Virus record (IMG/VR): IMGVR_UViG_3300045988_121070 | From: a virus | Direction: 5' to 3' (one strand) | DNA length: 64,000 nt | Part shown: positions 9,237 through 51,901 of the stretch, piece after piece | How positions within the stretch are numbered: the stretch's first letter is position 1 | How the letters are laid out: the number at the start of each line of letters is the position of its first letter | Translations under genes and position numbers: made by a program | The notes under the pieces: model-generated | What the model was told of the DNA's origin: nothing | Seen by the model: only the letters and a program-made list of their open reading frames with translations | Databases searched by the model: none

Positions 9237-10490
9237 CTACTTAAAGCGGGAGAGGAGCAGGGTACTATTGGTACCACCGAAGCCGAAGGCGTTGCAGAGA
9301 ATGGTCTGTAACGGGGTGATGGTTGGCGCTGTTGGAATGCGCAGAGCTGCTGCCGTCTCGTCAGGGTGCTGGAGGTTGATGTGAGGCGTTACGAATCCGC
9401 CTTGCATCTGTATCAGGGCATATACTACCTGGGACACGCCGGACATCCAGCATTCGTGGCCGGTGAGGGCCTTTGTGCTGATGACAAAGGGACGGCTATC
9501 ACCATTTGCAGCGGCATAGCCACTACCTACGGAAAAGAGGCGGCGGATGGCTTCTGCCTCGGCGCGGTCGCCATCTGGGGTCGATGTGGCGTGAGCCATG
9601 ATAGCGGAGATACCAGGACCCAGCGGAGAACCGCTGGGCACAGTGGCGGCAGACAGAGCGGCGAGCATAGAGCGGTAGATAGCATCAGCGGAGGGTGTTG
9701 CGAGGTCGGGACTGGTGGTGAAGCCGTAGCCTTTGACCGTGGCCAAGGGTTTGCGATTGCCCATAGCGGCATGGGCTGCTGTTTCGAGAATGACGCAGGC
9801 AGCACCACCAGAAGGCACGAGGCCGTCGCGGTCGCGGTCGAATGGTCGTGATGCAGCGGTGGGGTTGTCGGTGCGGTGACTGAAGATGCCGAGCGCATCA
9901 AAGGAGGTATAGGCATGTAGGCCCACTTCCTGAGCGCCCACCACTATGCAGCAGTCGAGTTTGCCGGACTGGATAAGCGAATGAGCGAGACCGATAGCAT
10001 GACCGCCACCGGCGCAGGCTGCAGAGACGGTAAAGGAGAGACCACCGATGCCAAAGATAGAAGCCAGCGACATAGAGACCGAGCTGTTGAGTGTGCGGAA
10101 CACCATGCCGGCACCGAGTCGGCGCGAGTCATGGTATTCAGCCATGATAGCCTCTGTCTCAGCGAGGGCACCAGCGGTGCTGTCATTGCTAACAATAAGT
10201 CCGCAGCGGTAGAGGTCGGCCACTGGAGCCATAGCAAGCGCTTCCTTCATGGCCATGTAGCCATATTCGCCTGGTTCGGAGAGAGTGATGCGCTGTGAGC
10301 GTCGCAATCCCTGAGCTTTGATGTCAGGACGCGGGACGATACCCGTGAGGGGTGACTGGTAGCCGTAGGCGGTACGCTCAGGATCGATGCCGATGCCACT
10401 CTTTCCGAGACGGAGAGACTGAGCCACCTCCTGAACGGACTGGCCGATGCAGGACCAGATGCCCATGCCCGTGATTACTGTGCGTCGCAT
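9237..10490 (-). CDS. fabF: Beta-ketoacyl-ACP synthase (KAS I/II, FabF-like)
   Basis: Active-site SAACAGGGHAIG, HATSTPDGD (HxTxTxxGD) and C-terminal NAFGFGGTNSTLLL. Confidence 0.9.
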   Translation of the reverse strand: MRRTVITGMGIWSCIGQSVQEVAQSLRLGKSGIGIDPERTAYGYQSPLTGIVPRPDIKAQGLRRSQRITLSEPGEYGYMAMKEALAMAPVADLYRCGLIVSNDSTAGALAETEAIMAEYHDSRRLGAGMVFRTLNSSVSMSLASIFGIGGLSFTVSAACAGGGHAIGLAHSLIQSGKLDCCIVVGAQEVGLHAYTSFDALGIFSHRTDNPTAASRPFDRDRDGLVPSGGAACVILETAAHAAMGNRKPLATVKGYGFTTSPDLATPSADAIYRSMLAALSAATVPSGSPLGPGISAIMAHATSTPDGDRAEAEAIRRLFSVGSGYAAANGDSRPFVISTKALTGHECWMSGVSQVVYALIQMQGGFVTPHINLQHPDETAAALRIPTAPTITPLQTILCNAFGFGGTNSTLLLSRFK

Positions 10491-10738
10491 AGGCTGGGTT
10501 TTTGTTCGATGATAGAACGGATGAGGTCACGCAAGGTATGCGTGTTCTTTGCATTCGTCATATCGAGTTTGACGTTAAAGTTTGTTTCGCACATCATAAT
10601 GAAGTCCACGATGTCGATAGAGTCGAGGTTGAGATCTTCGTGAAGATTGTCGTCGAGGTGAATATCCTCGGCGGGAGGCATGTTGTCGAAATGGGCTGTC
10701 AGGAGCGCCACGATGCGAGGGAAAAGTTTTTCTTCCAT
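10475..10738 (-). CDS. acpP: Acyl carrier protein
   Basis: 87 aa and acidic, with the phosphopantetheine-site motif LNLDSIDIVDFIMMCE (DSxD). Overlaps the KAS start. Confidence 0.8.
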   Translation of the reverse strand: MEEKLFPRIVALLTAHFDNMPPAEDIHLDDNLHEDLNLDSIDIVDFIMMCETNFNVKLDMTNAKNTHTLRDLIRSIIEQKPSLCDAQ

Positions 10739-10740
10739 GA

Positions 10741-10767
10741 TTTGATGAATTTATGAATTTATGAATG
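10741..10767 (-). promoter_or_regulatory. TTCAT-heptad leader directly upstream of the ACP start
   Basis: The minus strand reads ATTCATAAATTCATAAATTCATCAAATC-ATG. The same leader type precedes at least 12 genes on both strands. Confidence 0.45.
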
Positions 10768-10769
10768 AC

Positions 10770-10832
10770 GGCGATTAAATCGCCTGGCAATAGACGAAAC
10801 AGAGCAGCGAGACCCAGCCGATAACGGCTGGG
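10770..10832 (+). repeat. Mosaic palindromic element (C module + ACGAAACA flank + A module)
   Basis: GGCGATTAAATCGCC TGGCAATAGACGAAACA ... CCCAGCCGATAACGGCTGGG, between the tape measure gene and the ACP gene. Confidence 0.85.
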
Positions 10833-10839: not shown

Positions 10840-13800
10840 CTAACCTTTCCAGAGGCGGTCGCCGGAGTTGCGGCGCATGAAGTTAGCGCCATCCTGAGAC
10901 TCCTGCGTGATGCCACCACGTCCGTATTTATTGACATGGAGGCCGTTGCGCTTGATAGCCAGCATGACGGCGGTAAACTCGGAGAGCGTAGAACGGAGGC
11001 CGTCGATATCCTCTTTGGTGATGGTGTTGTCCGACGGAGAACCGTCGGGAGTGGTGGTGCCATCAGTGCCGAGGAAATCAGAGAGGTTGCCTTCGTCGTA
11101 GGTGCGGTAGGCATGGCCATTTGAGTAGTTTTTGTCGAACTTCACGATAGCCGCGAGGAGGTCGGGACGAGCCATCTGCATGGCAGCCGTCGTTTCGCGT
11201 CCAATCACCATTTCTGGGCCACGTTCTCCGACGAGAGACGGTTGACCGTTGACCATGGTCGCTATGGGCGATGTGACGAGACCCGTCTGCAGTTGTGGTA
11301 CCTGGCGAGCCTGATAGACATAGCCATCCGTACCGAGGACGGGTGTGCGGTCGCCACCATAGCCAGCGGGCGAACCGCTGGAAGCGGGTGTAGCAGAGGG
11401 AGAGTAGCCGGATGGAGAGGGACTTCCGGCGGAAGAACCGCCGGACACACTCTGGACGTTACCACTGTCATAGGTGAGCATACCAGTGGCGAGTTTGACG
11501 TTAGGAGTTGCAGCATCAGCGCCACCACTCTCGTCACCACCAAAGGCGAGTCCGATAGCCCATGATAGCAATCCCATCAACAAGGCGGTGATGACACCGA
11601 TGAGCGGAATACCCCACCATCCGAGGGTGCCAATGATCTTAGCAGCACCACCAGCGATACCGAGACCCACCTTACCAGTGGTAGCCCCCGCTTCCTCTGC
11701 CAGTTCGGTAGCATTCGAGGTAGAGTGCTGTGTGAGGCGGGCAGCATCGCCCGTTGCCTGAGCCGTGAGCATCAGCGTCTGGTAGAGTTGCTGTATCTGC
11801 AACATCGTAGCCTGGTGCATGGTCTCGTCGGCTTCTTCCTGACGATAGTAGAGCTGCTTAGTGACGCGACGTGTGAGGTCTTGTGCGATGAGTTGCAGAG
11901 ACATCTTCACATACGACTTCAGCATATCCTTCAGGAGGTCTTTGAATTTGACATCCGACTGTTCGGTGTCGTAGATCATATTACCCAGCGACTCCCCTAC
12001 CCCTTCAGCGAACGTGTTAAGCGGTTCAGAGAAGTTTTGGAGGAGAGACACGCGCTCTTGGAACTTACGTGCCACCGAGTCGGCCATTTCAGACTGAGCC
12101 TCCATCATCTGACGTTTAGCATCCGTCAGCTGCTGTTCAGAGATTTTATCCTGTTCACGCAGACGCGCCATATCCTCATAATAGAGACGGGCGCGTTCAG
12201 CCAGCAGGCGATAGCGCAAGATTTCAGGGTCAGAATCCATATTCCAGGACATGCCCATCTGCTGTCCCACGTTCTTATCCGACTCGAAGCGTTGCGTATC
12301 GCTGTTGATGGTTGACAGCTGCTGTGTCGATTTGTCGATACTCTGAATGGTAGGATTGTTATTGAAAACAAAATCCGCACGGCGCTTTGCCTCGTCGTAG
12401 GCTTTCTTCTGAGCATCCGTATAAGCATCCGAGTATTCAATCAGTTTCTGGTAGAACACCTTGAACTGGTCGGCAGACATGTTGAGCAGCGAAGAAAGGC
12501 CCGTACCAGCGAGATATGACTTATACTCTTTACCGAAGAGGATGGTAAGCACCTTATCCGGCGCATCCTCACTATTCGCATCGACAGAGAGCAGTTCCAC
12601 GATGTTTTCGCGAGTAGCGGTGAAAGCCTTTTGCCACTGAGCGGTGCGGTCGTCGATGAACTGCTGGATAGCCTCGTTATTACCCTTCTGCGACCACCCC
12701 ATCATCTGAGCGATCTGTTCGGAAGTCAATTCGGCGACACCAAACTGTTCCATCTGGTTCTCGTAGTCGAGGTTGACCTTCCCCGTATAGTTCTTTTCCA
12801 GGAGCACCTTCTGACGGTCCTGGTAAGCCTTATTCTGCTGGTTGGCGTTTTTCAATTCGTTTTCTGTAGCCTTACGCCATATCTGATCGAGCAATACAGA
12901 ACCATTCTGTCCCAACTCCTTAGAAAGCGTGGTAATCATGTCCTTCAGTTTCTCGACATCATTATGGATAATGTTATCGAGCAGCTGCGTGGACTGATTT
13001 GTGCCGTCAGCAGACAGCGGTTCGTAGAGGTCGTTAAGCATCGACTGGCGGAACTGTGCCCAATCGTTCTCAGTACCCGCAATCGCCTGACGGACGTTAG
13101 CCAGTGCATTGTTCATGCGGATTGTCATGCCGTCCACCAGTTTCTTCTGGAGTTCAGAATCCATGCCCGTCTTTGTCGCCATTTCCGTGATGGCAGCAAT
13201 CTGACGCTCGTAGTAATTCTTGACGTTATCGACAATCGCCTGAGCCTTGCCCTGTTCCTCTCTCATTTCCTGACGGAGCGCCTTGCGACGGGCTGCCTCT
13301 TCCGCCTTACGGCGACGTTCTGCCTCCTTATCGGGTGCATCGTTATCAAGAGCACCAGGAGACTCGTCTTCGGTGGCGGTAACGAGATCGTCTTCAAACG
13401 GCTTCCACTTTTTGTTGACGCGGTTCATGGCGTTGGTAGCCGAGTAAGCCTGCGTAGCATAACGGGTGGCAGCATAAAGCATCCGTTCGGCCTGGGTAAG
13501 GGCGCGGGTGTTGTTGGCACGGACCTCATTTGGTGTAAGTGTGCTTTCAGGACCGCTATTCATTCGCATGTCGCGAACATAGCCATGCACATCGAACCAT
13601 TCCGTCGGTGACTTGCTGGAACGAGACTTGTAAGCATCAGCGGCTATTTCGCCATTGACACCCAGTTTCCTTGCCAGGTCCTTGTTGATTTCTTCAACAG
13701 ACTTGCCGGCTTTCTGCATATCATCGACATAGGCTTTGAGCCATGTGCCGTTGTAGGGAGAGCCACCCGCCACGTTATCGTATTCCGTGAGGCGGTCGGC

Positions 13801-16656
13801 AGACCATCCGACACGAGGAGCCACCTGAGAGGTAATGTCCTTTTCCTTCATCTGAAGGGCGATCTTCGCACGGAGTTGCTTCACCACCTCCTTGTAAGCC
13901 TTTGCTACATCATAGGCAGTAGATTTTTCGGTGAGCATCTTCGAGAGATACTGGCCATACTCCTTGTTAAAGTTACGAATAGCAGCCGCACGTTGACGTG
14001 AGCCGTTGGCTGCTTCGTCGATAGCCTTCTTAAAGCGTTTCAGACGGTCATCAGCGATGGCAAACTCACGGTTGAAGTCAGACATCGTGCTATTGAAGCC
14101 CTGCATCCATGTAGTAGCCTTTTGTCCGCTCTTAATGACAGAACCGATAGCAATAGCGAGGCCCGTCAGAAGCGAGATACAGAGACCGATGACATTCATC
14201 TTCTGAGCCGTGTTCAGAGCGTGCCATGCAGCCACAAGTCCCTTAGTCTGGAGCGTGGCCAATACCGAAGCCTTACCCATGAGACCGATAGACGATGCCA
14301 AACCGATGATAGCCACCGAAGCACCCTTGAAGAGCAATCCCGTAAGAATAGCCGGCAGGAGTGCGAGGAGTATCTTCAATTCAGCAGCAATCAGTCCGAG
14401 GAGGTTTTTCATTATCCACATGGAAGCCTCGTTGGAAGTCATGGACTTTGAGAGGTCGTACCATGCCTGGGCCATCTGTTTTACCATATCGACACCCTCT
14501 GGGTTGGTGAAAGCCTTTGCCCAGAGGTTATTACCCTTTTCGAGGATAGCGTTAGCAGTGTCCTGTTTCAGAGCATACTCATTGGTGAGAGACGTTGCCT
14601 CTGCGAAAGCCTCGTTAGACTCTTCGACATGCGCACGGACCGTATCGACATTCTTAGACATGGTAGCCATGACACCGATAAGGCGCTGACCTTCAGAGCC
14701 GAGGTCTTTCCAGATGTTGCCGAGGGCATTCATGTTACCCTTTTCACGCATCTTTTCCATTATCTGAAGAATGGCCTCCATTGCCTTACCCTGTTGGAAA
14801 AGGTTATTGATTGTGCCCTTCTCCATGTTCAACTGCTGTTCGATGAGATTATGGTTGGTTTGCAGCGACGTGAAGAGTTTACCGAATGCCGTGGCCGCTA
14901 CTTCAGGAGCCTGGCCGAGCGCATCGGCAGCAGAGCCGAGTGCCAGCAGTTCTGGCGTAGTGATGCCCGTGATGCGGGAAAGACCCGTGAGGCGTTTAGC
15001 GAAGTCAACGATATGTGTTCCTGATGCAGTAGAAGTGGCCGACAGTTGGTTGATAGCCGAGCCGACAGACAGCATGGAGCGTTCGACACCCAGTTTGGGG
15101 ATAAGTCCCATGGTATCGACGAGTTTGGAAATTTGCAAGAGGCTGTCATCGCCGAGGTCGTCGGAGAGCGCCACCTTTACCTGGTCGGCAGCACGGACGA
15201 AAGCCGACATACCTTCGACACCATACTGTCCAAAGCCCATTTTACCACCCTGGTAGGCGAGGTCGGCGAGATCCTGCACCGTAGAGCGCGTGTTTATCTT
15301 AGCCAGGCTTTCAGACAATTCGTTGACCTCCTTGGTGGCGAGGCCCGTCACCTTACGGATGTCTGCGAGTTGGTCAGAATAAGCCAGGTTGCTTTGCAGC
15401 ATCCCCTGCAGTTTCTGCTGGGCGATAGAAAACAGTTGGAAGACACCGAAGTACATGGAGATATTGCGAAACGTCGTTTTCCATGCAGACCCCTGACGGT
15501 TGATAGCGCCGGTGGTACGTTCTATTTCCCCACGTATGGCTGCCAGCTGCTTCTGTTTGTCGATATACTGCTGTTGGTCGCGGTTGAGTTTAGCCATTTC
15601 CGTCTCTAACTGCTTTGCCGCCTTTTGGAGTGTTTCGAGCGGAGCCTTGCGGAGGTTAGCCGGCTGGAGGAGGTTGCCGATATCAACCAGTTCGTGATCA
15701 ACACCCGCGAGGATGTTTTGCAGCTGCTTCATCTGTTCGTTGAGTTTCTTGCGGGCCGTATCGCCTGTGCCGAGGTTGCTCAACTTACGCTGTATCTCAT
15801 CGATGGCAGCTTTTATTTCCTTTGGTGAGAACTTTTTAGGATCGAGGATGATATTGTCAGCCTTCTGCTGGAGTTGGTCGGTGGTGAGTTCTATCTGTTT
15901 CTCCTTACCCGCGATAGCATCCAGTTGGTCGTCACACTTCTTCAGTTCAGCATTGATGCGCTCGATCTCAGCAGCCACGTTGCCGGAAGCGGGGAGGATG
16001 CCACCTTTGCCCAACTGGTCACGATAACTGGCGAGGTTGGCACGAGCAGAGCGGAGCGCATCAGCAGAAGCCCCACCACCACTGATTGTAGCGACAGCGC
16101 GGCGAGCCTGTTCGTTTTGCAGTTGATGAAGGATATTGACCTGCGACTGATAGGCGCTGCTGGTTTTCTGTGTAGAAGCCACCAACTGCTTCTGCTGATT
16201 GATGGCGCGTTGCAACCAGGAATCCGTCTGTGTGGAGAGTTCGCCCATGTGCTTTTTGATGTTCAGCATTTCGCCCTGCATGACCTTGATTTGGTCGGTG
16301 ATAGCCTTATATTTCTGGCGCAGTTCTTCGAGTTTAGGGCTACTCTCGCTGGTGCGTGACATTTCCTTTTTGACCTGACGAAGCGCCTGGTTCAGTTGAG
16401 ACAGCGACGCATTAGAGAGGTTGGTAATGACCTTCTCCACCTTTTTCATGTCCGCCTCCTGCTGTTTGATGAGCGCACGGAGGTCGGCCATTTCCTTTTG
16501 CAGTTTCTGGGCACGTTGTGCGCCCGTTGCTGTGGAAGTGTTGATGGCATTATACGCCTTTTCCAGGCGCGACAGTTCGTTGCGCATGGCTTTGACGGCT
16601 GCTACTGGTTGTGCGGAGTCCGCACTGATCTTGATGTATATCTGTTTATCGGCCAT
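10840..16656 (-). CDS. Tail tape measure protein (1938 aa)
   Basis: Very long ORF with extensive coiled-coil sequence, a central cluster of hydrophobic helices and a Gly/Ser-rich C-terminal region, the typical tape measure architecture. Confidence 0.85.
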   Translation of the reverse strand: MADKQIYIKISADSAQPVAAVKAMRNELSRLEKAYNAINTSTATGAQRAQKLQKEMADLRALIKQQEADMKKVEKVITNLSNASLSQLNQALRQVKKEMSRTSESSPKLEELRQKYKAITDQIKVMQGEMLNIKKHMGELSTQTDSWLQRAINQQKQLVASTQKTSSAYQSQVNILHQLQNEQARRAVATISGGGASADALRSARANLASYRDQLGKGGILPASGNVAAEIERINAELKKCDDQLDAIAGKEKQIELTTDQLQQKADNIILDPKKFSPKEIKAAIDEIQRKLSNLGTGDTARKKLNEQMKQLQNILAGVDHELVDIGNLLQPANLRKAPLETLQKAAKQLETEMAKLNRDQQQYIDKQKQLAAIRGEIERTTGAINRQGSAWKTTFRNISMYFGVFQLFSIAQQKLQGMLQSNLAYSDQLADIRKVTGLATKEVNELSESLAKINTRSTVQDLADLAYQGGKMGFGQYGVEGMSAFVRAADQVKVALSDDLGDDSLLQISKLVDTMGLIPKLGVERSMLSVGSAINQLSATSTASGTHIVDFAKRLTGLSRITGITTPELLALGSAADALGQAPEVAATAFGKLFTSLQTNHNLIEQQLNMEKGTINNLFQQGKAMEAILQIMEKMREKGNMNALGNIWKDLGSEGQRLIGVMATMSKNVDTVRAHVEESNEAFAEATSLTNEYALKQDTANAILEKGNNLWAKAFTNPEGVDMVKQMAQAWYDLSKSMTSNEASMWIMKNLLGLIAAELKILLALLPAILTGLLFKGASVAIIGLASSIGLMGKASVLATLQTKGLVAAWHALNTAQKMNVIGLCISLLTGLAIAIGSVIKSGQKATTWMQGFNSTMSDFNREFAIADDRLKRFKKAIDEAANGSRQRAAAIRNFNKEYGQYLSKMLTEKSTAYDVAKAYKEVVKQLRAKIALQMKEKDITSQVAPRVGWSADRLTEYDNVAGGSPYNGTWLKAYVDDMQKAGKSVEEINKDLARKLGVNGEIAADAYKSRSSKSPTEWFDVHGYVRDMRMNSGPESTLTPNEVRANNTRALTQAERMLYAATRYATQAYSATNAMNRVNKKWKPFEDDLVTATEDESPGALDNDAPDKEAERRRKAEEAARRKALRQEMREEQGKAQAIVDNVKNYYERQIAAITEMATKTGMDSELQKKLVDGMTIRMNNALANVRQAIAGTENDWAQFRQSMLNDLYEPLSADGTNQSTQLLDNIIHNDVEKLKDMITTLSKELGQNGSVLLDQIWRKATENELKNANQQNKAYQDRQKVLLEKNYTGKVNLDYENQMEQFGVAELTSEQIAQMMGWSQKGNNEAIQQFIDDRTAQWQKAFTATRENIVELLSVDANSEDAPDKVLTILFGKEYKSYLAGTGLSSLLNMSADQFKVFYQKLIEYSDAYTDAQKKAYDEAKRRADFVFNNNPTIQSIDKSTQQLSTINSDTQRFESDKNVGQQMGMSWNMDSDPEILRYRLLAERARLYYEDMARLREQDKISEQQLTDAKRQMMEAQSEMADSVARKFQERVSLLQNFSEPLNTFAEGVGESLGNMIYDTEQSDVKFKDLLKDMLKSYVKMSLQLIAQDLTRRVTKQLYYRQEEADETMHQATMLQIQQLYQTLMLTAQATGDAARLTQHSTSNATELAEEAGATTGKVGLGIAGGAAKIIGTLGWWGIPLIGVITALLMGLLSWAIGLAFGGDESGGADAATPNVKLATGMLTYDSGNVQSVSGGSSAGSPSPSGYSPSATPASSGSPAGYGGDRTPVLGTDGYVYQARQVPQLQTGLVTSPIATMVNGQPSLVGERGPEMVIGRETTAAMQMARPDLLAAIVKFDKNYSNGHAYRTYDEGNLSDFLGTDGTTTPDGSPSDNTITKEDIDGLRSTLSEFTAVMLAIKRNGLHVNKYGRGGITQESQDGANFMRRNSGDRLWKG

Positions 16657-17325: not shown

Positions 17326-17568
17326 CTAAAAGAAGTATTCGATAAGGAGGACGGTTTTGGGGTAGTGAGCGAGAGAGAGGATGTCTTCAGGCAGCTGCAT
17401 GGCATCGTAGCGGGTGTTTAGGGTGCAAGCGACACCTCCTGATGCTACGTTGACGGGGACTATTTGCCCCCCCCCCCTAAACAGCCTTGGAGGTGCGGAG
17501 GTAGTTTGGGAAAGCGGGAGAGCTGTCATGCTATGACAGCATACGGAACGACTTTTCTTATAGGTCAT
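17326..17568 (-). CDS. TRD-like cassette 12 (80 aa), in frame across the 11-nt tract
   Basis: MTYKKSRSVCCHSMTALPLSQTTSAPPRLFRGGGQIVPVNVASGGVACTLNTRYDAMQLPEDILSLAHYPKTVLLIEYFF. The ..CTLNTRYD.. core is typical of m5C-methyltransferase target-recognition domains. C11 at 17467-17477. Confidence 0.6.
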   Translation of the reverse strand: MTYKKSRSVCCHSMTALPLSQTTSAPPRLFRGGGQIVPVNVASGGVACTLNTRYDAMQLPEDILSLAHYPKTVLLIEYFF

Positions 17569-17811
17569 ATTCAATAAATACACATTGGGATGTTTCGCCG
17601 GCCATTAGAGCAGAAGCGACACGGCCATCCTCCTTGACACGAGCACGGCGGAGTTTGGAGGTAGGGTAAGCCATATCGAAGACCCCATTGGGGAGGCATT
17701 CGATATATCCGCTTTCGGTGGCCTGGCGGACTTGGAGCACGATTTGCCCCCCCTATTGGCGATGGTAAGGAACGGGCGACGCAGTTCATAGTGATGGACG
17801 TTAGAACTCAT
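17558..17811 (-). pseudogene. TRD-like cassette 11, frame broken at C7 (8 needed)
   Basis: With 8 G it reads MSSNVHHYELRRPFLTIANRGGQIVLQVRQ...GRVASALMAGETSQCVFIEYDL-stop. The tract is at 17747-17753. Confidence 0.55.
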
Positions 17812-17976
17812 ATTCAATCAAGACATAAGGAGTGGTGTTATACATGCCTGTATCGGAATCTTTGCCAATACCCCCCCTGAAAACGAGGTAATGGTGTTGC
17901 AGATCTGCTTCAAGTTGTAACGGAGAACCAGACCTTTCGTATCACGAATCCAGCCGATGAAGTTATAGGTTGTCAT
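17801..17976 (-). pseudogene. TRD-like cassette 10, frame broken at C7 (8 needed)
   Basis: With 8 G it reads MTTYNFIGWIRDTKGLVLRYNLKQICNTITSFSGGGIGKDSDTGMYNTTPYVLIEYEF-stop. The tract is at 17871-17877. Confidence 0.55.
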
Positions 17977-18109
17977 ATTCTATCAGGAGGCAATGAGGAC
18001 ATTTATAATCAGTAGCACGAAGTGCCGGAGAGACCAAAAGCCATTTGCCCCCCCCTGACTTCCATTCAAAAGCGTGGGATAAAGGATGAACGCCTACCTT
18101 ATAAATCAT
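17963..18109 (-). CDS. TRD-like cassette 9 (48 aa), intact
   Basis: MIYKVGVHPLSHAFEWKSGGGKWLLVSPALRATDYKCPHCLLIEYDNL. SPALRATDYK matches the classic (a/s)PTLRA.DYK TRD signature. C8 at 18048-18055 is in frame. Confidence 0.6.
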   Translation of the reverse strand: MIYKVGVHPLSHAFEWKSGGGKWLLVSPALRATDYKCPHCLLIEYDNL

Positions 18110-18252
18110 ATTCTATCAGGATATACCCCCCCCCCATTTGCGGCCAACACCGTTTGGACGATGCCGGCAGTACCTTGAACATTACCATCAAAACCATTAC
18201 GGAAGGTATCGTAATATAGGTTCCCAATACGAAGGATGTTGCTATAAATCAT
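18099..18252 (-). pseudogene. TRD-like cassette 8, frame broken at C10 (9 needed)
   Basis: With 9 G it reads MIYSNILRIGNLYYDTFRNGFDGNVQGTAGIVQTVLAANGGGYILIEYDL-stop. The tract is at 18126-18135. Confidence 0.55.
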
Positions 18253-18543
18253 ATTCGATAATTACATTATTGACGTGAGCGGTGATGATTGTAGCAGAGG
18301 GGTTACGAAAATAATTACAGACGAGTTCGGGCACCCCCCCATCTTAGCATCCTGACGGTAGAAACGGAGGTCGCCATTCGGGAGCCAGTGAGCAGCGATG
18401 ATATCACGGCGAGAAAGACCAAGCCGAGAACGGCTGGGAGTGGTGGCGGAGGAACCAGCGGGGGAACCGCTGGACGCTGTGGAATTGGGGGCTGCGATAG
18501 TATCGCAGCATACGGGACAATCTACAATTCTCTTTCTATCCAT
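18242..18543 (-). pseudogene. TRD-like cassette 7, frame broken at C7 (8 needed). Its N-terminal 45 aa are encoded by C+B+A palindromic modules.
   Basis: MDRKRIVDCPVCCDTIAAPNSTASSGSPAGSSATTPSRSRLGLSRRD.... With 8 G it continues ..KMGGVPELVCNYFRNPSATIITAHVNNVIIEYDL-stop. The tract is at 18334-18340. Confidence 0.55.
18419..18519 (+). repeat. Mosaic palindromic element (A + B + C modules) embedded in cassette 7
   Basis: CCAAGCCGAGAACGGCTGGG AGTGG.. CCAGCGGGGGAACCGCTGG .. GCTGCGATAGTATCGCAGC ATACGGGACA. Confidence 0.85.
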
Positions 18544-18817
18544 ACGAGGTTATCTTTTTGCACGGAGGTGATGGTGTTTGTGACTTGGGCGGAACCGAGT
18601 TCGATAACTTGGTGAAAGTTGCGGTCAGCATGAGCACCACGGAATGAGAGGCAGTCGAGGTCACGATTAACCTGCGAACATATACGGACAGAAGCGGCAC
18701 GGCTGTCTGGGTCTCGGTCGTAGAGGTAGGTCATGGTTTGCCCCCCCTACCTCGGCTTGCTGAGATACGGACTTTGGCCATGTCTGCGGACGGTTCAGTA
18801 TCTTTAATCAAGAGCAT
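18522..18817 (-). pseudogene. TRD-like cassette 6, frame broken at C7 (8 needed)
   Basis: With 8 G it reads MLLIKDTEPSADMAKVRISASRGRGGQTMTYLYDRDPDS...GSAQVTNTITSVQKDNLVWIEREL-stop. The tract is at 18741-18747. Confidence 0.55.
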
Positions 18818-18985
18818 ATTCTACTAATAAGAGGTTATCTTTCTGAATGCCAGTGATAGTGTTAGAGCAGCCATCGGTTGCAGGGAGCAAAAAACGGTCG
18901 GAGAAACGGCAATGCCCCCCCCTATCTCCGTAGATACGGCGCACGGCTTTTGCGTGAGCGGTGCGGACAGCACGGAGGATAGAAG
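18804..18985 (-). other. TRD-like cassette 5. It has no ATG of its own and is in frame across C8.
   Basis: ..ASILRAVRTAHAKAVRRIYGDRGGHCRFSDRFLLPATDGCSNTITGIQKDNLLLVEYALD-stop. It lies just after the methyltransferase core stop and two hairpin modules, in the +1 frame relative to the core. The tract is at 18915-18922. Confidence 0.5.
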
Positions 18986-19040
18986 CCCCACCGAAAACGG
19001 CGGGGAGTGACGGCTTAGACCCGCTGGGAGAACCAGCGGG
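18986..19040 (+). repeat. Mosaic palindromic element (A + B modules) between the C5-methyltransferase core stop and cassette 5
   Basis: CCCCACCGAAAACGGCGGGG AGTGACGGCTTAGA CCCGCTGGGAGAACCAGCGGG CACACT. Confidence 0.85.
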
Positions 19041-19044
19041 CACA

Positions 19045-20412: not shown

Positions 20413-20416
20413 TAGC

Positions 20417-22285: not shown

Positions 22286-22331
22286 AATTTTTGCGGTTAG
22301 GACCCAACGGGGAAACCGCTGGGCACAGTGG

Positions 22332-23594: not shown

Positions 23595-23602
23595 CGCTGG
23601 TT

Positions 23603-38337: not shown

Positions 38338-38371
38338 ACGAAACAAGAATAATTCATAAATTCATTAAGTT

Positions 38372-40580: not shown

Positions 40581-40964
40581 ATGAACGGATTTGCTTACTA
40601 TAACCCCAATCCAAAAGGGCTTACAAACGCTTACGACTGTGTAGTACGAGCCTACACTTACTTCTTTGGTGTTACATGGCACAAGGCTTTTTTCGATGCT
40701 ATAAATTGGTGCGCCGAAAGAGGACTGGTAAGATGGAATTTTCCCAGCATCTACACACAATATCTGAAAGACAAAGGATATCAGCGTCACAGAGCGCCCA
40801 GAAAGGGCATAACGGTAGGACAATTCCGTGATGAGTTTGCAGACATAAATAAGACTTATATCATATCAGGACCACATCATCTAACTATTATTGCCAAAAA
40901 GGACATTCTGGACTTAGGAGATTGCTCTGATATGGTGATGTTCGCATATTGGGAAAGACAATAA
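40581..40964 (+). CDS. Hypothetical protein (127 aa), possibly Cys/His peptidase-like
   Basis: NAYDCVVRAY...GPHHLTIIAKKDILDLGD hints at a papain-like Cys...His...Asp arrangement. The evidence is weak. Confidence 0.5.
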   Translation: MNGFAYYNPNPKGLTNAYDCVVRAYTYFFGVTWHKAFFDAINWCAERGLVRWNFPSIYTQYLKDKGYQRHRAPRKGITVGQFRDEFADINKTYIISGPHHLTIIAKKDILDLGDCSDMVMFAYWERQ

Positions 40965-40983
40965 TTCATAAATTCATCAAATT

Positions 40984-41160
40984 ATGAGTAAGACGAAGAT
41001 TTTAGCGCCTGGTGTGGAGGTGGCACAGGACACGGGAGAAGTGTTGCTGATGCGCTGTCCGAAATGCGGGAAAGAGAACTGGGCACCGAATGTGGCTCTG
41101 GGTATCTGTACGTGGTGCGGGTATGACGGGCACGAACTATTGAAGGAGGAAGACGTATGA
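40984..41160 (+). CDS. Zinc-ribbon small protein (58 aa, below the ORF-track cutoff)
   Basis: MSKTKILAPGVEVAQDTGEVLLMRCPKCGKENWAPNVALGICTWCGYDGHELLKEEDV (CPKC...CTWC). ATGA overlap with the next ORF. Confidence 0.5.
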   Translation: MSKTKILAPGVEVAQDTGEVLLMRCPKCGKENWAPNVALGICTWCGYDGHELLKEEDV

Positions 41161-42071: not shown

Positions 42072-42944
42072 ATGGGTATAAATAAATTCAAATGGGATGT
42101 AAACTGTTGTGATGGGATATATAACTCATTCGACGTACACTTTACATCAGCCTGCGACAACCGATGTAGGCATTGCATTGATATGAAGTACCAGGGTAAA
42201 GGTATTATAAAACCAGACCCGAAAGCAATAGCACAAACTATCATCGACCATTCAAACGGTTTCGATGATGTGTTATTCCTCGGAGGTGAACCATGTTTAT
42301 ATCTGGATGAACTTTACGACTGCATCTGTAGAATTAAGGCAGCGACTAATCTAAAATGCTTTGTTACAACATCAGTTCCTAAGACATGCTATACAAATTA
42401 TTCTGTATTTCTACGAATATTAGAAATATTGGACGGCATGAATCTATCAGTACAACACTACCGAGAGGATGTTGCAGACGAAATACGTTGTGTAAAGTCA
42501 ACCTTTGACAGACAAAAATTCTATTCAGAATTACCCATGAAAGGAAAGATGCGCATCAATCTAAACATTGTCAAACCGTATCTATATAAGCGTGAAGATC
42601 TGTTAGCCTGTCTAAAGCACTACGATGACATGGGTTATAGAGAAATAAAACTCTCAGAAATCCAACACGGCACCGAGCACTTCGTATCTTTCGAGAAGAC
42701 ATTAGGCATGAAGATGAAATCACCATTTGCCTACGGCTGTCAACAATGGGTGGATATGCGCCCATACATACCTGGGTACAAAGGCCGTCTGCTACTTAAA
42801 CGATCATGCTTCCTCTGCGAGGAGACCTTAAAAGCCAGTTTTATGGACGGCATGAAGGTTATGCGCAAATATCTGTTACGGCCACAAAAAGGCCATTATG
42901 CAGTAGTATATGAAGATGGCTCACTTGCTAACGGGTGGGTATAA
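42072..42944 (+). CDS. Radical SAM enzyme (290 aa)
   Basis: FTSACDNRCRHCID (CxxxCxxC). Additional Cys residues near the C-terminus (RSCFLCEE). Confidence 0.8.
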   Translation: MGINKFKWDVNCCDGIYNSFDVHFTSACDNRCRHCIDMKYQGKGIIKPDPKAIAQTIIDHSNGFDDVLFLGGEPCLYLDELYDCICRIKAATNLKCFVTTSVPKTCYTNYSVFLRILEILDGMNLSVQHYREDVADEIRCVKSTFDRQKFYSELPMKGKMRINLNIVKPYLYKREDLLACLKHYDDMGYREIKLSEIQHGTEHFVSFEKTLGMKMKSPFAYGCQQWVDMRPYIPGYKGRLLLKRSCFLCEETLKASFMDGMKVMRKYLLRPQKGHYAVVYEDGSLANGWV

Positions 42945-44175: not shown

Positions 44176-45177
44176 ATGCTGATAGGACTGGTGGACGTGG
44201 ACGGACACGCCAAGAAAAAGAAATGGGGTGCAACGATATACCCCAACCTCGCACTCGCTAAGATAGCGAGGTACTGGAGAAATAGGGGGGGGCAAATTGA
44301 ATGGGCCACTCCCATGAAGCATTACGACATCATATACATGTCAAAGGTGTTTAACTTTTCGCCTGACGATACCTATATATATAATGCCGACGAGATAGTG
44401 AAAGGCGGGACGGGCTATGACCCTACGAGCCAGTTGCCGGAGGAGATAGACCGTCTGCAGCCGGACTACTCGATATACCCCAACGTGCCGAAAGATACTG
44501 CCTACGGATTTCTGACGAGAGGATGCCCGAACAGGTGTAAGTGGTGTGTGGTGCCCAGAAAAGAGGGTGCCATACGTCCGTATATGGATGTAGATGAGAT
44601 AGCCATTGAGGGCAGGCGAAAGTTGGTGCTGATGGATAACAACATCTTAGCGGCAGGCGACTACTGCATGGAGCAGTTGGAGAAGATCATTGAGAGAGGG
44701 TATAGGGTGGACTTTAACCAGGCTCTCGATGCGCGACTGGTGACTGACGAGGTGGCACAGCTGCTGGCGAGGGTGAAATGGCTTGATAACAACCGCATCC
44801 GCTTTGGGTGTGACACGCACGGACAGATAGCGGAGTGTGAGCGGGCTATGGCGCTCATCAACAAGTATGGCTTCACGGGGCAGTATTTCCTTTATACGAT
44901 GCTGACGGATGACTTCAGGGAGTGTTACGAGCGGATAGTGTATTGGTGGCACAGAACGCAAGAGACGCGGGCCAATCATCATGGGAGGTACGTCTATCCC
45001 CATGCACAGCCCTACCGTGACCCGATGAATCCCAACCACCACATACCACAATGGCAAAAGGACATGGCGGGATGGGTAAATAAGAAGGCGCACTTTGTGG
45101 CGCACTCGTTTGAGGACTTTGAGCCGAGGAAAGGGTTTAGGTGTAAGCAGTACCTGAGAGAGGCAGGGATAATATAG
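44176..45177 (+). CDS. Radical SAM enzyme (333 aa)
   Basis: FLTRGCPNRCKWCVV (CxxxCxxC). G8 at 44285-44292 encodes RGGQ, in frame. Confidence 0.8.
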   Translation: MLIGLVDVDGHAKKKKWGATIYPNLALAKIARYWRNRGGQIEWATPMKHYDIIYMSKVFNFSPDDTYIYNADEIVKGGTGYDPTSQLPEEIDRLQPDYSIYPNVPKDTAYGFLTRGCPNRCKWCVVPRKEGAIRPYMDVDEIAIEGRRKLVLMDNNILAAGDYCMEQLEKIIERGYRVDFNQALDARLVTDEVAQLLARVKWLDNNRIRFGCDTHGQIAECERAMALINKYGFTGQYFLYTMLTDDFRECYERIVYWWHRTQETRANHHGRYVYPHAQPYRDPMNPNHHIPQWQKDMAGWVNKKAHFVAHSFEDFEPRKGFRCKQYLREAGII

Positions 45178-45180
45178 GGC

Positions 45181-45242
45181 GGCGATGCAATCGCCGGACA
45201 ATGGACGAAACAAACGAGAGGCCCAGCCGAGAACGGCTGGGC
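45181..45242 (+). repeat. Mosaic palindromic element (C + A modules). The A hairpin probably serves as a bidirectional terminator between convergent genes.
   Basis: GGCGATGCAATCGCC GGACAATGGACGAAACA AACGAGAG GCCCAGCCGAGAACGGCTGGGC, followed by TTCTGTTATTT. Confidence 0.8.
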
Positions 45243-45247
45243 TTCTG

Positions 45248-45865
45248 TTATTTGCATAGGAAGTAGCGGGCGACGAGGAAGATGAGGACACCGAGGATGC
45301 CAAAGAGGGCGATGTAACCCAGATGGAGGACTAAGCCATCCCACCACGACTGAATGCGGGAGGGCGCTGGTTCTTTATATGATTGCTGATTGAGGGAGTC
45401 GAGCCAGTTGACCTGTTGGAGCATGTAGAGGGCTTCTGAGAGGGAGTCGGTACGGGCCGTTTCCTGTGATAGCTGCTGTTGGAGAGCAGAGATCTGTTGC
45501 TCGTAGCGGAGTTCTGTCTGGCGGGAAAGGTTGCGGTCGATGGTGCGGTTTTCCTGACGTACCTCACGGCCAAGGGAGTCGAGGTAGGTAGTGACGGACT
45601 CCTGAATGCGCTCAGTGGACTGTTCCTGTGTGGACTGCTGGGCGGTGATGCGAGCCTGCATCTGGGAGAAGAGGGAGTCGTAGCGGGAGAGCTGCTGTAA
45701 CATGGCTGCATACTGGACTTGCAAGGCACGGAGGCTGTCACCTTCGCTATGGGTGACAGTGGTGGTGGCGGTGCGAGACGTTGTGCAGGAGAGCACGGAG
45801 AAGACACAGAGGGCTGCTATCATATAGCAGCACACGAAACGAGGGAAGAGTGATTTTTTTGACAT
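45248..45865 (-). CDS. Lipoprotein with a coiled-coil and a C-terminal TM anchor (unimolecular-spanin-like architecture)
   Basis: Start at MSKKSLFPRFVCCYMIAALCVFSVLSCTTS (signal peptide plus lipobox-like LSC). Central heptad-rich region. C-terminal LVLHLGYIALFGILGVLIFLVARYF. Confidence 0.55.
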   Translation of the reverse strand: MSKKSLFPRFVCCYMIAALCVFSVLSCTTSRTATTTVTHSEGDSLRALQVQYAAMLQQLSRYDSLFSQMQARITAQQSTQEQSTERIQESVTTYLDSLGREVRQENRTIDRNLSRQTELRYEQQISALQQQLSQETARTDSLSEALYMLQQVNWLDSLNQQSYKEPAPSRIQSWWDGLVLHLGYIALFGILGVLIFLVARYFLCK

Positions 45866-45938
45866 GGCTATAATTGCTTTGATTACTGAGGCAAAGGTAG
45901 GGAGAATGGGCGAGAACATGGGGACAAAGAAGGAGACG

Positions 45939-46072
45939 GCGATGGAATTGCCGAGCAAGAGACGAAGCGAGACCCAGCGCTAAAGCGCGGGGCATAGAAC
46001 GAAAAGCCCCACCGAGAACGGCGGGGAGTAGTGGAGGGGTTCATGGTCGCTATGGCATAGCGACATGCCAAA
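45939..46072 (+). repeat. Dense mosaic of four palindromic modules (degenerate C, A-variant, A, C)
   Basis: GGCGATGGAATTGCC.., CCCAGCGCTAAAGCGCGGGG, CCCCACCGAGAACGGCGGGG AGTAGTGG, GGTCGCTATGGCATAGCGAC ATGCCAAACA. Confidence 0.85.
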
Positions 46073-46095
46073 CAAAGGGGTAAAAAAGCGTAACT

Positions 46096-49235: not shown

Positions 49236-49263
49236 AATGATTTGTTTTTTAGTATTTCTGTTG

Positions 49264-49294
49264 CAAAGTTAATCTTTAATTTTGAATTGACAAA
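49264..49294 (-). promoter_or_regulatory. Bacteroidota-type promoter for the par operon
   Basis: The minus strand reads TTTG (49294-49291), a 19-nt spacer, then TAACTTTG (49271-49264). Confidence 0.55.
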
Positions 49295-49399
49295 ATAAAA
49301 TTGTTATTATTTTATGAATTTATGAATATATGAATGTATGAATTGATGAAATTATGAAATTTTGTGATTTTTGAGGTGCTCTATAACGACATATAGGGG

Positions 49400-50218
49400 C
49401 TAACGGTGGCCATAGTCTTCGGGAGCTATACCCTGGGCGGCATTATTGGCGGTGGCCTCCTTGATGGTGCGTATCATGCCATAGTCGGCAGCGCCTTGTG
49501 GCGCTTTGGAGTGAAGCAGATCGGGGCGACGGCTGGGGTCAATGAAGGTATGACCGAGGCCACGTTTGCGAGGCATCCAGGGACGGAGGTCGGGATCGTA
49601 AGGGTCAATCCAGGAATCGAGGGGTTGGATATCTGAGAACTGAGAGGCACGAGCACGACGATCGGCGCGGTCGTAGATATTCTGTGCCCACTGCATCATG
49701 GAGTCGAGCGTGGCGAGGATGCCATTGTCGCCGAGCCATTCGGGATCTTCATCAGGAAGCGGCTGGAGGCAGCCTACGAGTTCGAGATAGACATTAAGAC
49801 CAGGCACCTTGCAGACGATGCGCGGCTCATCGAGTTCTTCGTCATAGACACGTCCCTGCTGTTCGATGAGCTGACGGATGGTGATGTCCTGACGGTCGGC
49901 CTCGATACGATTGCGGAACGCCTGCTGGCGCTGCTGGAGGTATTCGACGCGGGACTGTTCCTCACGTTCGGCCATGGCCACCAGTTTAGGGTTGTCGGTG
50001 CGTCCGGCAGCTGCTGCTGTCTTGAAGCCGTGGATCTTGCAAGTGATATAAGGCGGACGGGTGCTGATGATGCAGTCGCCGAGGTCGGAACGCTGCTGAT
50101 ACTTAGTGACGATGAAGGGTGCATGGAACTGCATACCCGACATGAAGTGCTGACTATACTGTGAGAGTTCGCCATCCCAGATGGGGTTGGGCTGAACGGT
50201 GTTGAATTGATTTTCCAT
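49400..50218 (-). CDS. Hypothetical protein (272 aa)
   Basis: Long ORF with a TTCAT-type leader upstream. Confidence 0.6.
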   Translation of the reverse strand: MENQFNTVQPNPIWDGELSQYSQHFMSGMQFHAPFIVTKYQQRSDLGDCIISTRPPYITCKIHGFKTAAAAGRTDNPKLVAMAEREEQSRVEYLQQRQQAFRNRIEADRQDITIRQLIEQQGRVYDEELDEPRIVCKVPGLNVYLELVGCLQPLPDEDPEWLGDNGILATLDSMMQWAQNIYDRADRRARASQFSDIQPLDSWIDPYDPDLRPWMPRKRGLGHTFIDPSRRPDLLHSKAPQGAADYGMIRTIKEATANNAAQGIAPEDYGHR

Positions 50219-50266
50219 TGAATGATGATTTGATGAATTGATGAAATTTGTGATTTGGTAGGGTGG

Positions 50267-51901
50267 CTATACGCGGAGGGTGCCGGCTATGAGGGGCAGA
50301 CAGAAGACGGCAGCACCCAGGACTACTGCACCAAAACAACAGAGGACTGCAGCACAGGCGACAGTGGCGAGGACTGCGGCGGTGGTGCTATGGTGAGGAG
50401 TGGCGGGTTCCTCGGTGGGAGAACCACCGAGCGCTGTGGTAGGAGCGGCTTCTTCGTCAGAGGCGGCAGGGGTAGCGGGGGCGGGAGCTTCGTCGGAGAA
50501 GAGAGAGGGGGCGAGCCAGGCTTCTTCCTCTTCGTCATCGGTGGCGATAGTATCGCCACATACGGGACAATCGGCGGGGGCTTCGTCAGAGGCGGAAGAT
50601 AAGGGGTTATTTTCCGTAACATTGTCCCCTACCCCAGCCGAGAGCGGCTGAGAGGGAGCGACGGCAGAGCCATCGCCTACGGAGGAAACAGGAGCGCCGG
50701 CAGAGGCTATAACACGATAGACCTTGGGGGTAATGTCGTTTGACAGACCCACCTCGATGGTGGCACCTGGATAGATGCCGAGGTCGTTGGCTGTCTTCTC
50801 TGAATAGAGGGAGGCGGAATGTACTTCGCGGTAGAGGAGGGTCACAGAGTCGAAGTAGGCCACGGGTGTACGCTTGCCACTCTTTCCGACCGTCACCTCT
50901 ATGCGGCGGCAGGTGGTGATGGCCTTAGCGGGTGCGAACTTATAAGCGATAGAGCCGTGAGGATGGTGTGCGGTGGCACCGAGGGCGCGGAAATAGTCAT
51001 CGTGCATGATGCGGAAGACGATACCATCAACGGGAAAGTCGAAAGCGGCACGTTCTGCCTCGCGTTTCTCCAGGAGCTGTTGAACATCGTCGAGGGTGTG
51101 GGCGGTCCATACTTCTGGACGGTGGATGAAGCAAAGGCGGTGGAGGAAGTCGAACTTATGCCAGGGGTAGCCGAGCGGGGTGCAAGAAAACTGAATCTGA
51201 CTGCTGATAGCGTCGTCGATATAGGCATCCCAGGGGATGAAGTCGAGCATGGCGAGGTCGATAGCGTCTGGTACAGACTGGTTGCAGAGAGCGGAAGCTG
51301 CTGTGCGGCAATCGGTGTAACGAGTGGAAAGGAGGTGGAGGTTGCGCTTGCTGCAGACAATTTCGCCACGTACCTCGATACGACCGGCGAGGGAGTAGGT
51401 GGCACCCGTCTCGCGGAGCTGCTGAGGGATGGAGGGGATGCAGAGGGCATGGGCGGTGATGTCCTGCCCTACCCTACCATCGCCACGAGTGGCGGCGCTG
51501 ATGAGTTGGCCATCCTGATATACGAGAGAGCATGAAATGCCGTCGTACTTCCACATGGCTACGAGCTTGTAACCGCCAGTGTGGTTGTCGCCGGTGAGGG
51601 CGTTCATGCGCTGGTTGGTCTTGTTGATCCATGAAGCAACCTTCTGAATGTCCTGAGCCTTCTGACAGGAGAGCATGGGGGTGCGGTGAGCGATACGGCC
51701 ATTGCCATTGAGGTCGGAGCCTACCTGCTGGGTGGGACTGTCTGGGAGGATGTGTGAGGGATTGAGGCGTTCGTACTGCTCGATCTGAGCGACGAGGGCA
51801 TCAAACTCGGCATCGCTCACAACGGGAGCGGATGCGACGTAGTACATGTGGGAGTAGTAGTTGGCGCGGCCAACGGCGTTGATGTAATCTGAATGTGTCA
51901 T
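50267..51901 (-). CDS. ligA: NAD-dependent DNA ligase (adenylation + OB domains only) with an aberrant C-terminal tail
   Basis: YYVASAPVVSDAEFDAL (domain Ia), the adenylation lysine motif WKYDGISCSLVY (KxDG), and an OB-like region. The Zn/HhH/BRCT domains are absent. The last 150 aa or so are encoded by A, C, B and D palindromic modules plus a hydrophobic stretch. Confidence 0.8.
   Translation of the reverse strand: MTHSDYINAVGRANYYSHMYYVASAPVVSDAEFDALVAQIEQYERLNPSHILPDSPTQQVGSDLNGNGRIAHRTPMLSCQKAQDIQKVASWINKTNQRMNALTGDNHTGGYKLVAMWKYDGISCSLVYQDGQLISAATRGDGRVGQDITAHALCIPSIPQQLRETGATYSLAGRIEVRGEIVCSKRNLHLLSTRYTDCRTAASALCNQSVPDAIDLAMLDFIPWDAYIDDAISSQIQFSCTPLGYPWHKFDFLHRLCFIHRPEVWTAHTLDDVQQLLEKREAERAAFDFPVDGIVFRIMHDDYFRALGATAHHPHGSIAYKFAPAKAITTCRRIEVTVGKSGKRTPVAYFDSVTLLYREVHSASLYSEKTANDLGIYPGATIEVGLSNDITPKVYRVIASAGAPVSSVGDGSAVAPSQPLSAGVGDNVTENNPLSSASDEAPADCPVCGDTIATDDEEEEAWLAPSLFSDEAPAPATPAASDEEAAPTTALGGSPTEEPATPHHSTTAAVLATVACAAVLCCFGAVVLGAAVFCLPLIAGTLRV

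Follow-up and report, generated by a model that had tools for sequence, protein, structure and literature searches.

Rickettsia palindromic elements (RPEs), described by Ogata et al. in 2000 and also summarized in PMC3733652, are reportedly about 100-150 bp long and lie both between genes and in frame within functional genes. Repetitive extragenic palindromes (REPs) and bacterial interspersed mosaic elements (BIMEs) are GC-rich imperfect palindromes of 20-40 nucleotides (nts) that occur in high copy number, mostly outside genes and occasionally within them (PMC3733652, PMC2817692), and REPs have a GTAG or CGTC tetranucleotide at the end of the palindrome (PMC3733652). [quoted passage not shown] Here we analyzed 64,000 nts of phage DNA (IMG/VR record IMGVR_UViG_3300045988_121070; this whole stretch is called the window, and the strand as given the + strand), which contains about 60 module-type hairpins, approximately 1 per kb, both between and inside genes. 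They were assigned to families A/B, C, C′ and D, which are defined below, and the modules are 20-45 nts long. The reading that we consider the most probable is a recent expansion of several families of REP-like, non-autonomous hairpins that are filtered by selection inside genes.

The window is part of a phage lineage with genomes of about 100 kb, and it is 85-98% identical to metagenome contigs of about that size from IMG/VR and other sources. The lineage probably infects Prevotella or another bacterium of the family Bacteroidaceae.

Hairpin modules in frame within phage genes

A preliminary description of this DNA had reported modules within the genes of a ketoacyl synthase, a tape measure protein, ORF 30687-31547, an XRE-like protein and a HicA fusion. 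All positions and peptides given there proved correct, and further in-gene copies were found at 9508-9537, 11031, 11425, 20173, 21652, 24262, 4330, 32969, 33403 and 50411.

The FabB-like 3-oxoacyl-acyl-carrier-protein synthase gene (9237-10490, - strand; Pfam ketoacyl-synt, 3e-24) contains two modules, both written on the + strand. The B module (9616-9646; GGA-CCCAGCGG-AGAA-CCGCTGGG-CACAGTGG, with the hairpin at 9619-9638) is read as ATVPSGSPLGP, and the D module (9508-9537; repeat-list family D14) as LFSVGSGYAAA. When the protein was aligned to solved FabB chains, an 8-residue insertion fell exactly at B and a 10-residue insertion at D; this alignment was used instead of an AlphaFold model, which was built from a shallow alignment and had a mean predicted local distance difference test (pLDDT) value of 30. 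Phage homologues of 55-69% identity have ...NPEQ-LS... or ..TPAD-ID.. where the clade of the window has ..VPSGSPLGPG-IS.. (VPSGSPLGPGIS). Directly upstream is the gene of an acyl carrier protein (10475-10738; in relatives, PP-binding by precomputed Pfam), and the carrier protein and FabB-like synthase are an unusual auxiliary metabolic pair for a phage.

Among the first 120 clusters of synthase variants listed, which are 87-98% identical and in many cases lie on contigs of about 100 kb, the B hairpin was kept in about 110 and the D module was present in 15, being missing in relatives of 88% identity. Modules of different kinds occupy the loop of the synthase, making it a hot spot: at least four alleles were verified in the DNA, namely B, a B variant, C alone and B plus C. 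Most variants carry B. The B variant (locus L086) has CCAGCGGG-GAA-CCCGCTGG, and the allele with C alone (L084) has GTAT-GTGGCGAT-GGT-ATCGCTAC. In the B plus C allele (L085), which is 33 nts longer, C is joined to A/B as in a composite C + A unit of the window (53435-53493, +) that ends 8 nts from the stop codon of ORF 53494-53838 (-). A B module with a flipped loop (SGEPLG) is known at this site as a protein variant only. Two junctions at the synthase site had 4-5 nts of microhomology.

Similar results were obtained for the other genes. The tape measure gene (10840-16656, -) has three A/B-type hairpins in its C-terminal part, on the + strand at 11031-11048, 11363-11381 and 11425-11445. The second is read as PASSGSPAGYG, and the Ser/Gly/Pro segment of about 30 residues that includes it and the third is absent in relatives of about 72% DNA identity. 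The linker of the XRE-like protein (29633-30427, +; Pfam score under the threshold) contains D and A modules (AAAEPLPAEKAAPQPRTAGSS; 30059-30115, +) read as AAAEPLPAEKAAPQPRTAG, of which D is missing in relatives of about 88% DNA identity and both are missing in L065 (about 68%). The same L065 relative, about 68% identical in the adjacent genes, has no counterpart of the inter-domain segment of about 30 residues in ORF 30687-31547 (-), where the B module at 31012-31030 (+) is read as APSGSPAGKK. Modules B, B, D and C (34083-34264, +) make up part of the linker of the HicA-fusion protein (33699-35432, +), and homologues of 60% identity have the same HicA N-terminus and C-terminal part, a linker 25 residues shorter and DNA without hairpins.

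In the NAD-dependent ligase gene (50267-51901, -), modules of the A/B type (50411-50431), C (50541-50572), A (50633-50652) and D (50658-50687), all on the + strand, lie in the acidic, variable segment that links the catalytic domains to the conserved membrane helix at the C-terminus. Homologues of 25-50% identity (P0121-P0167) already have the catalytic domains, the variable acidic linker, a W(L/I)APSLF motif and the C-terminal hydrophobic helix; two scans for the loci of these distant ligases returned close relatives only. The hydrophobic end helix has the conserved pattern …F.LPLL.GS.K (window 50267-50400), and its conservation down to 25-50% identity suggests that the ligase of this phage group is membrane-anchored.

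Further copies on the + strand include a variant-stem hairpin with a CACAGT tail (20173-20193; repeat-list D18) in the acidic N-terminal segment of a C5 methylase, read as TVPSDSVAG, and the hairpin CTCGATGG-AGAA-CCATCGAG (21652-21671) in an HNH endonuclease gene (21435-21923, -), read as NVLDGSPSS. The hairpin GCTGGCAG-CAGAA-CTGCCAGC with the tail CACAGTGG (24262-24282) is situated 33 nts ahead of the stop codon of the DUF5906 helicase-like gene (24229-27876, -). The same gene holds a half-deleted copy at about 27740-27757, where relatives have 18 nts more, in frame. Two D-type copies within 32969-33432 (starting at 32969 and 33403, +; D14) are read in two frames of ORF 32672-33487 as DAETMPLPAEKE and EQRQSHCLRNKR, and one copy (4330) is located at the C-terminus of a radical-SAM gene.

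As one of two explanations, the preliminary description had suggested insertion of the elements into coding DNA, with survival only where they are tolerated by the frame and by a flexible linker, and every comparison with homologues agreed with this. In all genes tested (synthase, tape measure, XRE-like, HicA fusion, ORF 30687 and ligase tail) the module is a lineage-specific, in-frame insertion or replacement. The alignments and the search for module-free alleles that it had suggested gave corresponding results: the module residues are lineage-specific insertions (8 and 10 residues in the synthase against solved FabB), and relatives without modules were found for D of the synthase, the HicA fusion, XRE, ORF 30687 and the tape measure protein. 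The 6-30 amino acids encoded by modules are absent from the homologues of the last four at 60-72% identity. The proposal that modules build the linkers was borne out only in part, since the linkers existed before, and the modules extend or overwrite them, adding or replacing 5-30 residues. The copies inside genes are confined to segments that were already variable, that is, surface loops, inter-domain linkers and C-terminal tails, and the length differences there (15, 18, 21, 33 and 39 nts) all preserve the frame. Twelve of the 14 in-gene A/B copies are read in the phase x-G-S/E/G-P/S/T-x-G, which gives small flexible residues, and this preference is consistent with a selective filter. Programmed bypass or excision of the modules is unlikely, because the in-gene indels are frame-preserving and none contains a stop codon.

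The location in linkers and the preferred phase would also be expected if selection acted on the peptide, favoring linkers rich in Pro, Ser, Gly and Ala, with the likeness of the DNA as a by-product. Such linkers are self-complementary because Pro (CCN) pairs with Gly (GGN) and Ser (AGC) with Ala (GCT), and the segment of the tape measure protein is of low complexity, with Ser, Gly and Pro, in relatives as well. However, the peptide depends on the strand of the gene: genes on the - strand yield the PSGSPLG type and those on the + strand PAGEPTG or TSGGTAG, and D is read in three different frames. In non-coding DNA the same sequences, with the same loops and the same non-palindromic tails, reach 8 times the density found in coding DNA, and the module edges match the indels between relatives. 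Copies with divergent stems inside genes keep the tail of their family, translated as T/S-V, and the tail CACAGTGG is common to in-gene and intergenic copies. The recurrence is an identity of DNA and not of peptides, as had been proposed from the sequence at the outset, and selection on the peptides is largely refuted and has hardly any probability left.

The preliminary description had offered a second route, in which intergenic spacers were read through and neighboring genes fused. Modules have no stop codons, and small C-terminal extensions do occur, namely three residues on the beta clamp and the synthase variant P0117, which reads past its stop codon into the downstream module. ORF 20901-21248 moreover links two cassette-like parts over modules C and A. 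Nevertheless, the HicA fusion, the two-part XRE-like protein, ORF 30687 and the membrane-anchor ligase keep their architecture in module-free relatives of 25-68% identity, and the tail of the ligase was rejected as a read-through fusion, its homologues at 25-50% identity already carrying linker and membrane helix. Since relatives at 25-72% identity keep the domain architecture without modules, no domain fusion is supported, and we regard read-through as very unlikely beyond the small extensions. Modules had also been described as the N-termini of target-recognition domain cassettes. The sequences are present in ORFs 18262-18543 and 20901-21248, but in a relative of 97% identity a 1-nt indel interrupts the frame across the modules of 20901-21248, so that translation there is doubtful.

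These cassettes belong to a region (17326-21248) around the C5 cytosine methylase gene (19045-20412), in which small - strand ORFs end in ...LIEYDL*. The Pfam match of the methylase spans only profile positions 43-226 of 324, and the enzyme may be split, with several alternative target-recognition subunits; the frames between the cassettes are not conserved in the 97%-identical relative.

Families, strand and surroundings of the hairpins

Hairpins were located by a mechanical scan of the window, and copies were counted as in-gene when they lay inside supported genes; the gene calls for small ORFs are heuristic. GC-rich hairpins with a purine loop numbered 28 on the + strand and 3 on the - strand, compared with 0-7 in 20 shuffled sequences. 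The B pattern was matched twice against an expectation of 0.02, and the D core three times against 0.04.

Members of family A/B have a GC-rich stem of 7-9 bp that is variable yet paired, a purine loop NAGAA and a 3′ tail of CACRGTGG or AGTGGTGG; the stem variants include CCCAGCCG, CCCAGCGG, CCCCGCCG, CTCGGTGG and GCTGGCAG. Family C is GCTGCGAT-N3-ATCGCAGC (GCGAT-N3-ATCGC) followed by the tail ATACGGGAC, and C′ is GGCGAT-N3-ATCGCC followed by nnnCAATAGACGAAAC. Family D is GCAGCGGC-AGA-GCCACTGC followed by CTACGGAGAAG, which on the - strand reads as GTAG plus the palindrome. The consensus sequences of A, B and C are free of stop codons in all six frames, so that translation can pass through a copy that has come to lie in an ORF. 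An intergenic array of A, B and C modules (18412-18528, +), situated within ORF 18262-18543 whose status as a gene is uncertain, folded as single-stranded DNA (ssDNA) much better than shuffled sequence (z score of -6.1).

Nearly all modules are written on the + strand, irrespective of the direction of the gene. The tails are one-sided, with + to - counts of 7:0 for C, 13:0 for C′ and 9:0 for the D motif (six of these nine being the hairpin-bearing D copies), and the A/B hairpins are oriented 28:3 in the window and 30:0 in loci outside it. The latter come from 32 kb of the genome of a relative, where all 30 GC-rich hairpins have the + orientation and the genes are nearly all on the - strand. 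In the window, the - strand carries the genes at 1-29.4 kb and 45.2-63 kb, and the + strand those at 29.6-45.2 kb. Within this + strand block the five A/B copies keep the usual orientation, which indicates, from few cases, that the orientation follows the strand of the DNA and not the gene. The window has a GC content of about 50% and, throughout its 64 kb, a positive GC skew on the + strand.

Between genes, 37 of the 60 copies occupy 10.4 kb of non-coding DNA, and 23 are inside supported genes, so that the density is 3.56 per kb in non-coding and 0.43 per kb in coding DNA, an 8-fold enrichment. For - strand genes, the A/B hairpin lies 4-17 nts past the stop codon in 17 of 28 intergenic copies, with a mode of 8 nts, which is the length of the tail, and in five cases it lies 16-17 nts ahead of the next start codon. 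Where the gene is on the + strand, the hairpin that comes 0-8 nts after the stop codon is of the C or C′ family. The minimal intergenic cassette of 43-55 nts consists of stop codon, 8-nt tail, hairpin, about 16 nts and ATG. A typical one (22296-22343, +) joins the stop codon of the beta clamp, through the 8-nt tail, a B hairpin and 16 nts, to the start of the dUTPase gene. In loci L018 (about 85% DNA identity here) and L021 this cassette is absent and a 13-nt gap is found instead, and its presence shifts the stop codon of the beta clamp by three residues. A stretch of about 900 nts without supported genes next to the Rep3-like gene (45180-46076, +) carries C′, A, C, C′, A, A and C. Most of the modules are not canonical intrinsic terminators, because they have no T-run; 8961-8990 and 21031-21066 are exceptions.

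Turnover among relatives and a proposed route of spread

Comparison with phages of 85-97% identity revealed many indels that correspond to whole modules, between and within genes, and the presence of copies is polymorphic even among phages of 95-97% identity. One stem variant was swapped for another at 4291, 46007 and 57975. Compensatory double changes were found at 34237 and 45973, as in the HicA linker, where GCTGCGAT/ATCGCAGC became GCTGCGGT/ACCGCAGC, together with many single changes that break a pair. Copies inside genes are decaying, with A-C mismatches and the one half-deleted copy. At the orthologous sites 4291-4310, 8961-8982, 23573-23595 and 45217-45246, the loop was flipped from AGAA to TTCT while the stem was unchanged or swapped; these flips are small hairpin-mediated inversions, polymorphic within the clade. 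The loci of sister clades (55-72% identity; four loci, 33 kb) contained 0-2 GC-rich hairpins each, one in L054 and two terminator-like in L058, and these are unlike the modules. The expansion of the modules in this lineage is probably recent.

Their spread could be explained by replication-associated template switching, or by microhomology recombination, between hairpin-bearing sites at forks stalled by the hairpins. Either process would keep the strand, would require no transposase and would account for the composite units and the swaps. The G-rich strand is usually the nascent leading strand. If this applies to the + strand, the + sequence would also be the lagging-strand template, and hairpins might extrude there. 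Under this reading, intergenic copies would be at most dispensable hairpins for transcript ends or translation spacing, and copies inside genes would be tolerated passengers rather than functional signals.

No Y1/HUH or other transposase domain was detected by Pfam in the 89 ORFs of the window and 28 ORFs outside it (32 of about 42 kb), a total of 96 kb. In a relative, a complete diversity-generating retroelement (DGR) was found outside the window (contig IMGVR_UViG_3300026549_000055, locus L036, 2356-4627), with a reverse transcriptase (2356-3702, -), a template repeat (4035-4153) and a variable repeat (4509-4627). The two repeats, the only such pair, have 14 mismatches, each of them at a template adenine. 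Since the modules depart from the rules that have been published for DGR hairpins, we claim no link between the DGR and the modules. An exact 20-mer search for the A module in 185,579 genomes gave single matches per locus and no arrays; the matches in Bacteroidota were on contigs of 8-95 kb from Prevotella or Bacteroidaceae, probably those of the phage itself. Mimicry of a host REP or CRISPR repeat was rejected on this ground, at the level of the exact A module.

Several points weigh against a spread of passenger hairpins. For the proposed copying mechanism, microhomology was found at two junctions only, and few insertion junctions were looked at; the sister clades were sampled over about 33 kb only, and outside the window the transposase scan covered 32 of about 42 kb. 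The translation of the module peptides is judged from conserved frames, and some involvement of the DGR reverse transcriptase is conceivable. The covariation count among the copies is high, and it proves little alone because the copies were preselected for pairing, so that it is illustrative only.

Other points of this kind would be explained if the modules were functional cis signals, acting as ssDNA or RNA, whose copies inside genes are kept because they are needed there, the peptide being the price. Possible roles include lagging-strand priming, helicase loading, recombination, formation of the 3′ end of transcripts, processing and translation spacing. The stems vary without losing their pairing, the loop NAGAA is conserved and so is the tail CACRGTGG, about 58 copies are on the + strand and 3 on the - strand over approximately 96 kb regardless of gene direction, with positive GC skew throughout, and the spacing of 8 nts from stop codons is precise. 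Compensatory changes occur in coding copies such as that of the HicA linker, and the B hairpin is retained in nearly all of the synthase variants listed (about 110 of 120). On the other side, sister clades have the same genes in the same order without the hairpins, copies come and go among phages of 95-97% identity, and those in genes decay. Moreover, different families (B or C) are found at one site, long genes have copy-free gaps of 4-6 kb, and most copies lack a T-run. Palindrome arms can also be homogenized without selection, by templated repair, as in quasipalindrome mutagenesis. Because the loop and the tail are conserved and the spacing from stop codons is exact, we leave some weight to a signal, the chief alternative, which we nevertheless consider unlikely.

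We also consider it improbable that an active, strand-specific system uses the hairpins as substrates, with a protein guiding copy-paste or cassette exchange on ssDNA at the replication fork. Such a system could rewrite defined protein loops, as at the hot spot of the synthase with its alternative alleles. The phage primase-helicase, recombination proteins or a DGR-type reverse transcriptase could drive it, and if true, it would represent a novel form of targeted diversification or mobility for a phage.

Gene content of the lineage and relation to described systems

Pfam matches in the window comprise, besides the tape measure protein and the synthase, ThyX, a primase (6655-7647), the beta clamp, dUTPase, the DUF5906 helicase-like protein, an exonuclease, the NAD-dependent ligase, ParA, a Rep3-like protein, several DNA methylases, four radical-SAM proteins, the HNH endonuclease and the HicA-domain fusion protein; of the radical-SAM matches (4317-5147, 39229-39801, 42072-42944 and 44176-45177), three are below the Pfam threshold. 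A protein with a Tad2-like (anti-Thoeris) domain is encoded at 3444-4313. No known phage record matched in a megablast search of 21 kb of the window against a phage collection, no Rfam family reached its gathering score in the window, and no tRNA was found in it.

Other repeats are present as well. AT-rich repeats with a period of 8 nts, (TTCATNAA)n when read in the gene direction, lie directly upstream of start codons (10721-10789, 38348-38374, 40960-40986, 49290-49382, 52780-52856, 54314-54390, 54946-55006, 57916-57976 and 59098-59150). Unlike the hairpins they track gene orientation, and they may be a 5′-leader signal for translation or transcription in a host without Shine-Dalgarno sequences. 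A repeated block of about 90 nts (TTGCAAAGATACGAATATATTTTGATACTACCAAATATTTTT...; repeat-list families D7 and D10), which resembles the -33/-7 promoters of Bacteroidota, is found at 53303-53393, 55468-55558, 58723-58813 and 62910-63000, and also at 8044-8141 and 49242-49339. From 63786 to the end of the window at 64000 there are iteron-like tandem repeats of 23 nts (AGTTAGAGAAAAATAGTGTAATG; family D9), and a perfect 18-bp inverted repeat is located at 63616-63657. The region 8316-9237, about 900 nts without a supported ORF, has a Bacteroidota-like promoter on the + strand (about 8812-8845) followed by hairpins and the A module with a T-run (8961-8990), and may encode a small RNA or a micro-ORF.

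As the lineage is abundant in public metagenomes, the gains, losses, swaps and loop flips of its modules form a natural time series, in which spread without a transposase, the lock to one strand and selection into linker-compatible frames can be studied. For annotation, ORFs here can be lengthened or joined across stop-free modules, and segments of low complexity rich in Pro, Ser and Gly are derived from repeats. Palindromic repeats in frame within genes are classically known from Rickettsia, and REPs or MITEs inside genes from several other bacteria; our full-text literature search found no report of in-frame palindromic repeats in phage genes, so that the phage case is unreported in the literature searched.

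Target hairpins of DGRs, which lie 4-34 bp past the variable repeat, have a GC-rich stem of 7-10 bp and, on the sense strand, a 4-nt loop (GRNA) whose sequence is important (PMC3240598). The modules resemble them in the GC-rich 7-10 bp stem of free sequence and the 4-nt loop, and the lineage encodes a DGR. However, the loop of the modules reads AGAA along the + strand, which for most genes gives TTCT on the sense strand and UUCU on the mRNA, and there are about 90 copies genome-wide, the nearest approximately 107 nts from the variable repeat. With PeSL cassettes, which are thought to be recombinational, the modules share stem-loops at phage gene boundaries that mark indels and replacements between close relatives; the difference is that here the modules themselves enter coding sequence. 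No promoter part was identified in the modules, for which no motif search was made, and the Bacteroidota-type promoter-like blocks (D7, D10) are separate repeats. Like the QMITE and Correia/NEMIS elements, the modules are repeats that are non-autonomous and that, through translation in frame, can change proteins. MITEs, in contrast, are 70-300 bp long with terminal inverted repeats and target-site duplication, whereas at the few clean junctions seen we found neither terminal inverted repeats nor a consistent duplication, only 4-5 nts of microhomology.

The likeness to REPs lies in short GC-rich palindromes of high copy number (about 60 in 64 kb), mainly extragenic and just downstream of coding regions. 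GTAG is found directly 5′ of the palindrome (- strand) in four of six D copies and GCAG in the other two, C has GTAT, and A/B has CACRGTGG instead. The modules differ from REPs in that no REP-associated tyrosine transposase (RAYT; Y1/HUH) was found in the 96 kb scanned, with about 10 kb of the genome and the host left out, and in that the carrier is a phage, the scanned host genomes being without the repeat; unlike BIMEs, the phage arrays have a single orientation and no inverted pairs. As in the case of RPEs, the palindromes occur between genes and in frame within them, add a peptide at permissive sites and involve no transposase encoded by the element, and the lineage-specific in-frame insertion into functional ORFs that characterizes RPEs was found in the synthase, tape measure protein, XRE-like protein, HicA fusion, ORF 30687 and ligase. 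RPEs are bacterial and about 100-150 bp long, whereas the phage modules are 20-45 nts long, match no Rfam family, form multi-family arrays locked to one strand and are exchanged at one site between near-identical genomes.

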